Part shown: positions 8,380-14,498 of the stretch, piece by piece
Layout: each line of letters begins with the position of its first letter
How positions within the stretch are numbered: position 1 is the stretch's first letter
Assembly (NCBI GenBank): GCA_048887225.1
Contig: JBHLJY010000001.1
Coordinates: 100,335 to 164,334, forward strand
From: Candidatus Hodarchaeota archaeon
Lineage (GTDB): Archaea > Asgardarchaeota > Lokiarchaeia > Sigyniarchaeales > SOKP01
Direction: 5' to 3'
DNA length: 64,000 bases
Position numbers and translations under genes: made by a program
Notes under the pieces: generated by a model
Databases searched by the model: none
What the model saw: only the letters and a program-made list of their open reading frames with translations
What the model was told of the DNA's origin: nothing

Positions 8380-8916
8380 GTGGAATTTAATAAATCGAAT
8401 CACAAGATATTAGAAATTTCTAAAGTAGACGACAAAATCATAAAAAAGTTAATCGATAATTTGAAATTGGATTTATCTGATAACTTTTTTATTTCCTTTG
8501 AAAGTCTAATAAAGCTAGGAAAAAAGGCTGAATCTGCATTAGAAACCGTTATTCATGAAATAGACGATCATCATCAATTTAAAAAAGAAATATTTAATCT
8601 ACTTCTGAATTTTATTAAAAACAACGAAATTGAAAATCCTTTATTACTTAAATTATATCATCCTGATTTTATTGTTCGAGCAAATGCTCTAGTGCAAATT
8701 GAAAAAAATGACGCTTTAAAAAATCTTAATTTCATTTTGCCATTAATATCAGATCCAGATGATTCTGTGCGTTGGGCAGTTATGAGATTACTAGATTCAC
8801 TTAATCAATCAGAAAATCAAAATCAAATTATTTTTAAAAAATTAAAAAAGCAAGTAGAGATTGAACCAAATCCAGTAATTCAAAAAAAAATTAAAAAGAT
8901 ATTAAAAATAGCATAA
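8380..8916 (+). CDS. hypothetical protein with HEAT/PBS-lyase-like repeat
   Basis: 178 aa with a GTG start. The helical repeat DPDDSVRWAVMRLLDSL resembles HEAT-like repeats. Confidence 0.45.
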   Translation: MEFNKSNHKILEISKVDDKIIKKLIDNLKLDLSDNFFISFESLIKLGKKAESALETVIHEIDDHHQFKKEIFNLLLNFIKNNEIENPLLLKLYHPDFIVRANALVQIEKNDALKNLNFILPLISDPDDSVRWAVMRLLDSLNQSENQNQIIFKKLKKQVEIEPNPVIQKKIKKILKIA

Positions 8917-11274: not shown

Positions 11275-12102
11275 ATGATTAAATTAGCTATAAATCAAAA
11301 TTCGTGCAAAAATCTTTCATTGTTAAGATTTATTAAATTTTCAAAAGATTTTAAGGGAGTAGAATTAAATTTTAAAGAGATTAAAAAAGAGGTCTCTGAA
11401 AATGTTAAATTAAAAGACATTTTAGAAACCTTAGAAAGATACAATCTTAAAGTATATAGCATTTTTAGTCTAAAGGATTTTTCATTATGCTCAGAAAGAG
11501 ATTTTAAAATTAAAATCCTTAGTAATTTAATCCAAATGTTTAATTTCTGTCATAAATTAGAATCAGAGTTAATAATTGTCAATCCTTCTAAACTTGAATT
11601 TTCCTTAGAATCTGACATAGTACCAAAATGGAGAGTTATTAATAAAACAAGAAAAAGACTTGAAGAAATTTTAAAAAAAGCAAATAGTGAAGATATTAAT
11701 ATAGGCTTTGAATTTTTATCTGATAGTTCAATATCAACCTTAAGCGATGCTAAAGAAGTTTTAGAACCTTTTGAATCGCATGAAAATTTAGGGTATATTA
11801 TAGATTTATTCCATGTAGTTAAAAGTGGATCAGATCATAATCAGCTTAAAATTATTAAAGATTTTATCTTTTTAATTCAATTATGTGATTTAGAATACGA
11901 TAAAGAAAACATAACAGATACATCCAGCTCTTTAGTAAAAAGAGTTTTCCCAGGAGAAGGTTATTATGAATTAAAAGATTTTATAAAATTTTCTCAAAAA
12001 ATAGGGTATCTCAAAACATATTCTCTAGAATTATCGAAATATGAATGTTCAGATAATTTATATAAAAAATTGCATATTTATTATCTAAACAATATTCAAT
12101 AG
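11275..12102 (+). CDS. xylose isomerase-like TIM-barrel protein (sugar phosphate isomerase/epimerase family)
   Basis: 275 aa. The pattern NIGFEFL...LGYIIDLFH...IQLCD is typical of the AP-endonuclease-2/xylose-isomerase-like barrel. Confidence 0.5.
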   Translation: MIKLAINQNSCKNLSLLRFIKFSKDFKGVELNFKEIKKEVSENVKLKDILETLERYNLKVYSIFSLKDFSLCSERDFKIKILSNLIQMFNFCHKLESELIIVNPSKLEFSLESDIVPKWRVINKTRKRLEEILKKANSEDINIGFEFLSDSSISTLSDAKEVLEPFESHENLGYIIDLFHVVKSGSDHNQLKIIKDFIFLIQLCDLEYDKENITDTSSSLVKRVFPGEGYYELKDFIKFSQKIGYLKTYSLELSKYECSDNLYKKLHIYYLNNIQ

Positions 12103-12168: not shown

Positions 12169-12693
12169 ATGACTACTTATGACTATACGTTTAAGATCTT
12201 GTTGTTAGGCGATGCTTCAGTGGGAAAAACTTCGTTCACTAAGAGGTATTGCTATAATGTCTTCAATCCTAGCGAACGTTTGACGATAGGAGTCGATTTT
12301 CACGTAAAAACCATCGAGTTGCATAATAAAAAAATAAAATTACAAATTTGGGACGTTGGTGGAGAAGAGCGTTTTAGATTCCTGCTACCTACGTATTGCC
12401 TTGGCGCGAACGCGGCGTTTCTGTTGTATGATATTACGAGAGCTCCCACTTTAGATAATATACCAGAATGGACTTCTATAGTAAGGGAAAAGGGAGGCTC
12501 AATCCCTATTATGTTAGTTGGTTCAAAAGTCGATCTTGCTGAATCTCAGCGGGAAATTCCTACAGAACATGGTGTTCAAATTGCCGAGAAAAATAATTTT
12601 TCTGATTTTGTCGAGATTTCAGCAAAAGAAAATCTTAACGTTAACAATGCCTTTAAAGATCTAACTGAGTTTACTATTCAAAATATGAAATAA
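12169..12693 (+). CDS. Rab-like small GTPase (Ras superfamily)
   Basis: 174 aa. Motifs: G1 GDASVGKT, switch I TIGVDF, G3 KLQIWDVGGEERFRF, YDIT, G4 GSKVD, G5 SAK. There is no C-terminal Cys prenylation motif. Confidence 0.9.
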   Translation: MTTYDYTFKILLLGDASVGKTSFTKRYCYNVFNPSERLTIGVDFHVKTIELHNKKIKLQIWDVGGEERFRFLLPTYCLGANAAFLLYDITRAPTLDNIPEWTSIVREKGGSIPIMLVGSKVDLAESQREIPTEHGVQIAEKNNFSDFVEISAKENLNVNNAFKDLTEFTIQNMK

Positions 12694-12712
12694 AAAATAA
12701 ATAGATTATTCT

Positions 12713-13678
12713 ATGACCACACAAGACGAATTTATTCAAATATCGAATTTATTCAATTCATTAGGCATAATTGAAAAAGGTATTGAACGAGTTTATCATT
12801 ATTTGTTAAAAAATAAAAGAATTGATAATTTAAAAGAAGTCTGTGATCAGTATGATCTATCTTTAAAAAGAGGTTATAAAATCTGTTCTGTATTGAACGA
12901 TTTAGAATTAGTTCAAATTTACGATAGACCAATGAAAGTCAATTTAACAACTCCTCTTGTCTCGATTTGGCAAAAATTGATCAACAAGCGTATAGAAGCC
13001 TTGAAATATGAATTTGAGGACGAAAAGCAGCGATGTTCTGTTTATCTTGACGAATTTATTAAACAATATAATTTGAAATCCTTAGAGGCTCCACAAGAGC
13101 CTGTAGAATTGCTTCTTTTCGATATTAAAAAAATCGATGAGATGTATTATCCATTTTTAACCCGCAGTGAATGTAAAATTGCGGCAGGTATTAGATACGA
13201 AAATCCATTAATTTCTTTCATCAGGACCAATTCGATAGAAGAGATCGGAAAGAACTTAAAAAAGTCTATAATAGAAAGTATGAATAAAATTAAAGAAAAC
13301 CTCAGTAATATTAATATAAAAGTTGTTTTTAATAACGAGTTAATTATTGAATTGCTAACAAGTAAAGAATTTGCGGTTTTATACGAACAAATCGAACCTG
13401 TTGAATTTGAATTTAAAAGCCTTAAAGTTCATATAACAGAAGAACACTTTAGTAATTTTATTTTAACCGATGAAGAGTTAATCCAGCCAAGTTTCGATCC
13501 TACCAACAAGCTAATGGGTTCTTTTATATCTCGCAACGAAAATATTTATCACATTTTTTATGCTAAATTTAACGAGTTATTTGAAAAAGGAATTCCGATA
13601 AATAATTTTATCTCAATATCTGATATTTCAATTAATTCCCTATCGGAAAAACAAACATTTACCTTGTGTTTATTGTAA
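12713..13678 (+). CDS. TrmB-family winged-helix transcriptional regulator-like protein
   Basis: 321 aa, 19 nt after the GTPase stop. The N-terminus (LGIIEKGIERVYHYLLKNKRIDNLKEVCDQYDLSLKRGYKICSVLNDLELV) fits the TrmB wHTH. A coiled segment and a C-terminal domain follow. Confidence 0.6.
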   Translation: MTTQDEFIQISNLFNSLGIIEKGIERVYHYLLKNKRIDNLKEVCDQYDLSLKRGYKICSVLNDLELVQIYDRPMKVNLTTPLVSIWQKLINKRIEALKYEFEDEKQRCSVYLDEFIKQYNLKSLEAPQEPVELLLFDIKKIDEMYYPFLTRSECKIAAGIRYENPLISFIRTNSIEEIGKNLKKSIIESMNKIKENLSNINIKVVFNNELIIELLTSKEFAVLYEQIEPVEFEFKSLKVHITEEHFSNFILTDEELIQPSFDPTNKLMGSFISRNENIYHIFYAKFNELFEKGIPINNFISISDISINSLSEKQTFTLCLL

Positions 13679-13763: not shown

Positions 13764-14498
13764 ATGTCAGAAAAAGTATTGTATGTAGAATTAACACCTC
13801 GAGAATTTAAGGAGCGATTATTAAAGGCTCCGATTGCATATTTACCTTTAGGTACTCTTGAATGGCATGGTAGGCATATGCCATTGGGAGCAGATGGATT
13901 GATATCTTCTGGATTTTTTATAGAACTTGCGAAGAAGGTTGGTGGAATAGTTCTTCCAATGCTCTTTTTAGGACCCGACAATTCAAGAATTGTTGATGGA
14001 AAAGAATATTATGGGATGGATATTAAAAGTTATCCTTCGCAGCACCCTCAAAAACTTTTAGGTAGTGCTTATTGGATAAATAAAAAGCTTTTTAGGGATG
14101 TCCTTATAGAAATCTTAAAACAACTTAAAAGGGCAAGTTTTAAAATTGTTGTAGCACATGGCCATGGTCCATCTACATTGGTTTTCTATAAGAGTATTAA
14201 AAAATGGAGGAAAGAATTTGGTCTTGAGCTTTTTATATGCTGGAGAGATAAAGAAACAGATGGGCTTGGAATACAAACGGATCATGCTGCTGCAAATGAA
14301 ACATCCCTTATGATGGCTTTAAGACCAGATCTCGTCAAAATTGAAAATCTTTCAAAGGAAAAGGATAAAAAACCACTTGGACTTCAGGGCAAAGATCCCC
14401 GTGAATTTGCGAGCTCTGAGAAGGGAAAGAGAATAATATCTTTACAAATAGAGCGAATAGCAGAAATTCTTAAAGAAACATTAAATAAAATTAATTAA
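13764..14498 (+). CDS. creatininase family amidohydrolase (ArfB/MftE-like)
   Basis: 244 aa. It carries LPLGTLEWHGRHMPLGADG and HGHG...TDHAAANETS. Confidence 0.8.
   Translation: MSEKVLYVELTPREFKERLLKAPIAYLPLGTLEWHGRHMPLGADGLISSGFFIELAKKVGGIVLPMLFLGPDNSRIVDGKEYYGMDIKSYPSQHPQKLLGSAYWINKKLFRDVLIEILKQLKRASFKIVVAHGHGPSTLVFYKSIKKWRKEFGLELFICWRDKETDGLGIQTDHAAANETSLMMALRPDLVKIENLSKEKDKKPLGLQGKDPREFASSEKGKRIISLQIERIAEILKETLNKIN

Follow-up and report, generated by a model that had tools for sequence, protein, structure and literature searches.

A conserved Asgard archaeal gene pair encodes a Rab-like GTPase with glutamate at the catalytic glutamine position and a protein of predicted TrmB-type architecture

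Introduction

Asgard archaea encode dozens of Ras-superfamily GTPases, and these are commonly interpreted as precursors of the membrane trafficking of eukaryotes. The GTPase genes of the cultured Asgard strain MK-D1 generally do not lie in operons with regulators, and their partners are hard to assign (Tran et al., PMC10933270). Operons that join a GTPase to a partner are already known, for example in MglA/MglB, in the conservons and in the Asgard LAMTOR1-like/Rab-like/DENN operon (Liu et al., bioRxiv 10.1101/2020.10.19.343400). Here we describe a pair of adjacent genes in a 64,000-nucleotide stretch of the Candidatus Hodarchaeota archaeon assembly GCA_048887225.1 (contig JBHLJY010000001.1, positions 100,335 to 164,334; hereafter the window, and all positions are counted from its first nucleotide). 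The pair encodes a Rab-like GTPase of 174 residues and, directly downstream, a 321-residue protein, hereafter the partner, whose predicted fold is that of the TrmB-family protein TrmBL2.

Actinobacterial conservons (CvnA-D; MfpB-E) resemble this pair in that a conserved operon joins the gene of a Ras-like GTPase to that of a helix-turn-helix (HTH) partner. A conservon has four core proteins, among them a histidine-kinase-like sensor and a roadblock GTPase-activating protein (GAP), and the GTPases of these systems are MglA-like, whereas the present locus consists of two strictly linked genes, its GTPase is Rab-like and its partner has no similarity to DUF742. [quoted passage not shown] GTPases of MglA Group 3 are predicted to act in transcription regulation, their genes being linked to one for a protein whose winged HTH is C-terminal, and those of Rup Group 1 lack the catalytic glutamine in G3, which is thought to be supplied in trans (Wuichet & Sogaard-Andersen 2015, PMC4316618). 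Both groups are bacterial and belong to other GTPase families, with a partner architecture that combines a receiver-like domain and a winged HTH; where Rup Group 1 would receive a glutamine in trans, the GTPase of the window carries a potentially catalytic glutamate of its own. The Asgard LAMTOR1-like/Rab-like/DENN operon is likewise conserved and likewise joins a Rab-like GTPase to candidate regulators, which are roadblock and DENN proteins, partners of the trafficking type; the partner described here has a predicted DNA-binding fold.

In TrmB regulators, the C-terminal domain is the sensory, ligand-binding part. Pairing with a GTPase is, to our knowledge, not a known feature of TrmB proteins, whereas the partner described here is always paired with one. 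The papers that could be searched contained no description of a Rab-like GTPase tied in this way to a protein of TrmB fold. The partner represents a new, sequence-divergent family of TrmB/TrmBL2 architecture.

A Rab-like GTPase with glutamate in place of the catalytic glutamine

The product of the upstream gene was matched by Pfam Ras (PF00071) with an E value of 4.6e-46 (156.8 bits, cutoff 21.6) and by NCBIfam TIGR00231 with an E value of 3.5e-24 (85.4 bits, cutoff 42.5); the matches to Roc (2e-30) and Arf (9e-10) were weaker. Rab3B was the best of 869 matching PDB sequences (2.9e-41), the best 60 were Rab or Ypt proteins throughout, and the closest solved relatives were Rab3, Rab8 and Rab11, to which the G-domain can be matched over its full length at E values of about 1e-41. 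By these profile and sequence matches, the open reading frame (ORF) at 12169-12693 is unambiguously a Ras-superfamily GTPase, Rab-like in type. The original prediction, made from the sequence alone, had read the Rab-family motifs TIGVDF, KLQIWDxxGxE, RFRF and LLYDIT in this protein, and all four were found, the second as KLQIWDVGGEE; G5 reads SAK. The sizes that it gave for the two ORFs and the 19-nucleotide gap between them also agreed with the sequence.

Comparison with eukaryotic Rabs revealed a mixture of shared and missing features. The RabF-type motifs (IGVDF, KLQIWD, RFR and LLYDIT) and the ranking of PDB matches both place the GTPase nearest to Rabs. By contrast, the catalytic glutamine of the DTAGQE motif is absent: in the HMMER alignment, WDVGGEERF of the GTPase stands opposite WDTAGQERY of Rab3B, so that Glu66 occupies the catalytic glutamine position, equivalent to Ras Gln61, as had been predicted. 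The prenylatable C-terminal cysteine (CC, CXC etc.) is missing as well. Indeed, the protein ends in ...TIQNMK, in line with the earlier claim that it has no C-terminal cysteine, and the last eight residues are free of cysteine in 120/120 orthologues, the set being the best 120 homologues at 76-97% identity. The GTPase resembles in this respect the Rab-like GTPases of Lokiarchaeota, and archaeal Rab-like proteins generally lack the C-terminal cysteine (Surkont & Pereira-Leal 2016, PMC4915359). Further differences from Rabs lie in G3, where DTAGQ has become DxGGE with an Arf/Roc-like double glycine, in G4, which reads [S/A]KxD in the Loki clade, in a family-specific switch II sequence, LLPTYCLGA, and in the fixation of the gene in an operon with a winged HTH protein. 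The SKVD reading of G4 in the original prediction was borne out (tca aaa gtc gat); the lysine and aspartate are retained and the asparagine is replaced by serine.

G14, A16, G19, K20 and T21 of the P-loop are invariant, including in a sister clade of more distant relatives, and so are, in both clades, the G2 threonine of switch I (T39, within TIGVDF) and G3, D62-V-G-G65.

The glutamate is fixed in one orthologous group

WD[VIM]GGE was present in 120/120 orthologues. The GTPases of the sister clade, which are 52-59% identical, read WD[LM]GGE[NER]RFRFLLPTY and yet carry the canonical NKxD at G4, whereas SKxD was found in 85/120 orthologues, with AKxD occurring in others. Because the sister clade combines the glutamate with a canonical G4, the glutamate is older than the G4 change. 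Paralogues differ at this position: a second Rab-like GTPase of the window (194 residues, 38% identical; Table 1) reads WDLGGQERFRF, with TKHD at G4, and WDIAGQD is the sequence in second GTPases that other genomes encode close to the pair. Judged from these alignments, the glutamate is fixed throughout one orthologous group, and the paralogues retain glutamine. No TrmB-like neighbour was seen beside the second GTPase gene of the window, which provides an internal control for a glutamate confined to the paired GTPase.

Conservation extends over both switches. In the two clades, FNP..LT.GV.F of switch I and GGE.RFRFLLPTY.LG of switch II are invariant; such near-frozen switches would be expected where a fixed partner occupies the surface.

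The original prediction had noted that the glutamine is needed for intrinsic and GAP-stimulated hydrolysis. A premise that glutamate in its place abolishes hydrolysis is not supported, since the intrinsic GTPase activity of Ras Q61E is increased (PMC2987813, PMC10515638). Because Ras Q61E hydrolyses GTP faster than the wild type, Glu66 does not imply a dead enzyme and, by analogy, the exchange of this residue points to a different catalytic regime rather than a locked switch.

The partner has a predicted TrmBL2-like fold

The downstream gene encodes a protein of a restricted family. A search of a 5.8-billion-protein collection returned 528 partner homologues, and only 54 family representatives at 50% identity were found among 1.84 billion proteins. 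By this sampling, the family is small, sharply bounded and previously unnamed.

To define its fold, an AlphaFold2 (AF2) model was built from an alignment of 26 family members (mean predicted local distance difference test score, pLDDT, 81.7) and compared with the PDB by Foldseek, of which the top 50 matches were considered. The model comprises a winged helix-turn-helix (wHTH) made of three helices and a beta-hairpin wing, a long helix of 37 residues and a C-terminal alpha/beta domain. The best eight matches were all TrmBL2 (E values from 2.4e-10 to 3.3e-9, over 280-293 columns at 15-18% identity), with low template modelling scores, as expected when domain orientations differ. Further matches linked the C-terminal domain to Zucchini, PLD3 and PLD1, and the N-terminal domain to MarR-type and archaeal wHTH proteins. 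The partner thus has the same order of winged helix, long helix and PLD-like C-terminal domain as TrmBL2 of Thermococcales (PDB 5BOX, 5BPD, 5BQT), its long helix corresponding to the one by which wHTH and C-terminal domain are joined in TrmB-family proteins.

Sequence profiles place the partner apart from TrmB proteins. With PF01978 (TrmB), the window protein gave nothing at E <= 1 and 4/26 orthologues reached at most 20.3 bits, below the cutoff of 25.6; neither of the two TrmB models of Pfam matches the window protein, and no sugar-binding subdomain was identified in it. The original prediction that the N-terminus fits a TrmB winged helix therefore stands at the level of the fold, in the AF2 model and its TrmBL2 matches, and finds no counterpart among Pfam, NCBIfam or PDB sequence matches. 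By its modelled architecture, the partner is of the TrmB type, outside the sequence definition of the TrmB family.

Two regions of the partner are strongly conserved. In the winged helix, K52, R53, Y55 and K56 of the recognition helix and D71-R72-P73-M74-K75 of the wing are invariant. In the C-terminal domain, the stretch FSNF...ELIQPSFDPxNxLxG (columns 246-269) is invariant, and residues 262-270, the core of the invariant loop 255-269, have a pLDDT below 50. Because this loop is invariant and yet modelled with low confidence, it is a candidate docking segment; the combination suggests a segment that becomes ordered on binding.

Residues 51-56 of the partner, LKRGYK, align with the RRxYD DNA-contact motif of E2F/DP proteins, and the sister clade has KRIYK at this place. 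With E2F_TDP (PF02319), the window protein gave no match and 5/26 orthologues scored 25.2-27.3 bits around a cutoff of 25.7, in some cases above their TrmB score; among PDB sequences, the family profile matched E2F8 with an E value of 0.037. This E2F/DP-like appearance of the recognition helix could be generic wHTH similarity.

Other functions suggested by the C-terminal domain or by the gene pair were considered and rejected. An active PLD/Zucchini-type nuclease was dismissed, as the HKD motif, HxK(x)4D(x)6GSxN, is absent and H239, the sole candidate histidine, is arginine in several orthologues; on the model, the C-terminal domain is PLD-like and non-catalytic, like that of TrmB proteins. 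A split Roc-COR (ROCO) protein was likewise dismissed, with no COR or ROCO structure among the top 50 Foldseek matches of the partner and a Roc match weaker than Ras on the GTPase. Finally, the partner ends in ...LCLL, and a cysteine with two hydrophobic residues recurs at the end of about 77/79 Loki-clade partners (LCLL, LCVM, LCIM, LCIL, LCVL). A CaaX box offsetting the cysteine-less end of the GTPase was rejected, since the cysteine lies at -3 and not -4 and partners of the sister clade end in …LILALI or …LLVLF, without cysteine. The cysteine-bearing end is a confidently modelled terminal helix, and this cysteine is probably structural rather than a lipidation site.

The two genes are strictly linked across relatives

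The gene order was then followed across related genomes, with one genome per GTDB species; 97 partner-encoding loci were found and 80 of them were retrieved. The nearest public relative of the window is a locus of a metagenome-assembled Asgard genome, L001, whose proteins are 95-97% identical. Almost every other relative carries the label Promethearchaeota, Promethearchaeia or Lokiarchaeota; Thor, Hod, Hermod and Odin labels occur on a few metagenome-assembled genomes from a single submission series, and these labels could not be verified.

A GTPase orthologue lies immediately upstream of the partner gene, on the same strand, at 78/80 loci. The two remaining loci are uninformative on linkage, as their partner genes begin 25 and 101 nucleotides from a contig end, and the pair is therefore found in 78/78 testable species-level genomes. 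A reverse check from GTPase orthologues gave the same result, 3/3 being followed by a gene for 320-322 residues without a Pfam match. In the sister clade, in which the partner is 31% identical, the GTPase gene precedes the partner gene in 3/3 informative contigs, with different flanking genes. The weakest full-length member of the partner family, P0288, lies 278 nucleotides from a contig end, and its upstream neighbour is out of view. The adjacency on which the original prediction asked to be judged is thus conserved, both among the 78 genomes and in the sister clade. Across the scanned loci, the pair is single-copy and universal in the lineage.

The gap between the two genes has a median of 4 nucleotides, is exactly 4 in 47/79 pairs and ranges from -14 to 27. 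In 73/78 loci, a Shine-Dalgarno-like AGGTGAT lies 4-8 nucleotides before the partner ATG and overlaps the GTPase stop codon, so that the last codons and stop of the GTPase gene (..AAT AGG TGA) double as the ribosome-binding site of the partner. The window and L001 are exceptions to this overlap pattern, as both lack AGGTGAT and have a 19-nucleotide spacer, in which no oligo-T tract was found either. The 4-nucleotide median gap and the AGGTGAT overlap strongly imply, at the sequence level, that the two genes are co-transcribed. Given the strict gene order, the short gap, the ribosome-binding overlap and the persistence in the sister clade, the two genes therefore appear to form one obligate, translationally coupled module of Lokiarchaeia-type Asgard archaea.

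The high synteny of this lineage has to be set against this argument, since other neighbours are widely conserved too: a HEAT-repeat gene at 64/81 loci, an HpaB-like gene, convergent and downstream of the pair, at 57/81 and an Amidohydro_2 gene at 48/81. Two co-expressed neighbours with independent functions, kept together by synteny, would account for such conservation. We regard this explanation as very improbable, because only the GTPase-partner pair reaches 78/78, because the median gap is 4 nucleotides with the partner's ribosome-binding site inside the last codons of the GTPase gene, and because the pair persists in a sister clade with different flanks. No other gene pair at these loci is universal, 4 nucleotides apart and kept across clades.

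A proposed GTPase-controlled DNA-binding switch and its alternatives

We tentatively favour, with a confidence somewhat short of even, a model in which the GTPase, in one of its nucleotide states, docks on the C-terminal domain of the partner and this docking changes the engagement of DNA by the partner's winged-helix domains. The GTP/GDP state would then replace the sugar ligand of TrmB regulators. Glu66 would most likely act as a built-in general base, making hydrolysis independent of a glutamine-positioning GAP, and the GTPase would be a self-timing switch rather than a dead enzyme. The original prediction had likewise suggested that the pair may be a nucleotide-state-dependent transcriptional switch. 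The analysis establishes the family assignments, the fixed glutamate, the TrmBL2-like predicted fold and the strict linkage with its coupling signals; that the two proteins bind each other, through which domain, that the partner binds DNA and how the glutamate affects kinetics are inferred.

Several observations weigh against this model. The partner of the window had no match in Pfam, NCBIfam or PDB sequences, and thus none to TrmB or another HTH family of Pfam. Natural fusions of GTPase and partner were absent among the 54 representatives, the longest of which has 353 residues. Residues 20-80 have an isoelectric point of 8.6 and the partner as a whole one of 5.2, so the winged helix is only mildly basic within an acidic protein. 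The generally high synteny of the lineage lowers the weight of adjacency by itself, and leaves that of the 4-nucleotide coupling intact. An autoregulatory operator was sought in the 130 nucleotides upstream of the GTPase gene at 43 loci, as inverted repeats with arms of at least 8 nucleotides spaced by 20-70 nucleotides, and these scored no higher than composition-matched shuffled controls. Apparently covarying arms noticed by eye in this region were dropped, as their scores were no better than those of the shuffles. Moreover, winged helices can also bind proteins. For one Ras-like GTPase, an HTH partner has been shown to be a GEF: mycobacterial MfpC, a DUF742 protein with a predicted HTH, acts on the Ras-like MfpB encoded in the same operon (PMC11343762).

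This precedent suggests the main rival of the model, in which the partner would not bind DNA and would instead be dedicated to regulating the GTPase, either as exchange factor or as GAP/co-GAP. The winged helix would then serve as a protein-interaction or dimerisation module, and the effector would be encoded elsewhere. We consider such a role rather unlikely. In its favour, the strict one-to-one co-translation signals fit a stoichiometric regulator, the wHTH is only weakly basic, the search of upstream regions found no operator, and a GTPase that lacks the glutamine may depend on residues provided in trans, which has been proposed for Rup Group 1 (PMC4316618). However, the match of the partner over its whole length is a DNA-binding TrmB-family protein, K52, R53, Y55, K56, R72 and K75 are invariant, as expected for DNA contact, and no known GEF or GAP fold occurs among the top 50 Foldseek matches.

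The identity of the best structural match bears on a further alternative. TrmBL2 was deposited as an archaeal chromatin protein and is not the sugar-sensing TrmB, and the partner might accordingly be an architectural chromatin protein with little sequence specificity, whose loading, oligomerisation or release the GTPase would control. The lack of an operator above shuffled controls and the universal, single-copy occurrence of the pair in the lineage are compatible with this role. Its support is fold similarity, at the 15-18% identity given above, and the partner is acidic overall; we judge it improbable.

A bolder form of the docking model combines these elements. In Lokiarchaeia, the pair would be a universal chromatin- or promoter-coupled G-protein switch, in which a soluble Rab/Ran-like GTPase with a self-catalytic glutamate directly gates a DNA-binding protein of TrmBL2 fold, with a recognition helix similar to the RRxYD motif of E2F/DP. 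We consider this version unlikely. If true, part of the expanded Asgard GTPase repertoire would signal to the genome rather than to membranes, and coupling of a GTPase to DNA in the manner of Ran-RCC1 would have a precedent in prokaryotes.

Whichever role the partner has, the pair is an exception among Asgard GTPases, almost none of which can be assigned a partner (PMC10933270): here the partner is identifiable, coupled one to one, and of a fold that points to DNA rather than membranes. Should it prove to be a GEF, the pair would nonetheless be the first of its type in Asgard archaea in which a GTPase is matched with its regulator. Two small soluble proteins with one residue to mutate make a tractable system, which could address the role of an Asgard Rab-like GTPase, the natural glutamine-to-glutamate change as a fast, GAP-independent timer, and pre-eukaryotic signalling from a GTPase to the genome.

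Genes around the pair

The features of the pair and of its surroundings are collected in Table 1. The window is AT-rich (30.6% GC).

Table 1 Positions of the GTPase-partner pair, its motifs and neighbouring genes in the window
Feature	Position	Strand	Basis
Rab-like small GTPase, 174 residues, Glu66 variant, without lipidation cysteine	12169..12693	+	Pfam Ras, PDB relatives, orthologues
G1/P-loop GDASVGKT, residues 14-21	12208..12231	+	read from sequence
G3 DVGGE, with Glu66 (GAA, 12364-12366) in the place of the catalytic Gln	12352..12366	+	Rab3B alignment
G4 SKVD instead of NKxD	12523..12534	+	read from sequence
Intergenic spacer, 19 nucleotides, no oligo-T terminator, unusually long for the family	12694..12712	+	read from sequence
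TrmB-like (TrmBL2-fold) partner, 321 residues, unnamed family	12713..13678	+	AF2, Foldseek
Winged helix-turn-helix, residues 24-78	12782..12946	+	AF2, invariant columns, Foldseek
Partner residues 51-56, LKRGYK	12863..12880	+	
Long helix, residues 82-118	12956..13066	+	AF2; full-length TrmBL2 alignment
C-terminal alpha/beta domain, residues ~133-321, PLD-like, without HKD	13109..13675	+	Foldseek
Partner C-terminus ...LCLL	13667..13675	+	
Xylose-isomerase-like TIM barrel (AP_endonuc_2), 66 nucleotides upstream of the GTPase gene	11275..12102	+	Pfam 5.9e-21
up346, 346 residues	9990..11030	-	
up340, 340 residues	8940..9962	-	
Small HEAT-repeat protein	8380..8916	+	HEAT_2 23.4 bits, below cutoff
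Creatininase-family gene	13764..14498	+	Pfam 2.9e-27
ORF of 883 residues	14568..17219	+	
Second Rab-like GTPase, 194 residues	40976..41560	-	

The gene directly upstream of the pair in the window encodes a TIM barrel, orthologues of which adjoin the pair at 13/81 loci, 66-127 nucleotides upstream of the GTPase gene. A non-orthologous AP_endonuc_2 member (24% identity, 109 residues) lies just downstream of the partner gene in the sister clade. Besides that of the window, genes of this family beside the pair lie at 3156-4154 in L081, 5093-6058 in L083, 2100-2921 in L086 and 2049-2873 in L087. The TIM-barrel gene seems loosely associated with the pair, as a recurrent sugar-enzyme fold beside a TrmB-like protein.

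Further upstream, up346 and up340 are unnamed, Loki-restricted proteins without Pfam or PDB sequence matches, encoded on the strand opposite to the module at about 20/81 loci that span its whole diversity. In L005 (505-3314), the up346/up340 pair occurs in two tandem copies upstream of the module. In the AF2 model of up346 (pLDDT 73), a beta-beta-alpha-beta-beta-beta-alpha-alpha unit occurs twice in tandem, with its elements in the order seen in longin domains. Foldseek found no significant match to this model, the best being tandem PAS (E = 1.5e-3) and CPLANE (3e-2), then TagF and GATOR1. On the model, up346 could be a GTPase regulator, possibly a tandem longin-like protein. The other protein, up340, gave a weak COG2_N match (E = 0.0085).

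The small HEAT-repeat gene lies directly upstream of the GTPase gene, on the same strand, at 64/81 loci and has been displaced in the window by the inserted up340, up346 and TIM-barrel genes; HEAT_2 proteins are also encoded near the pair in the sister clade. On the downstream side, no counterpart of the creatininase-family gene or the 883-residue ORF of the window was detected among the 80 related loci, although L001 ends just past the partner gene. In their place, most relatives carry the HpaB-like gene.

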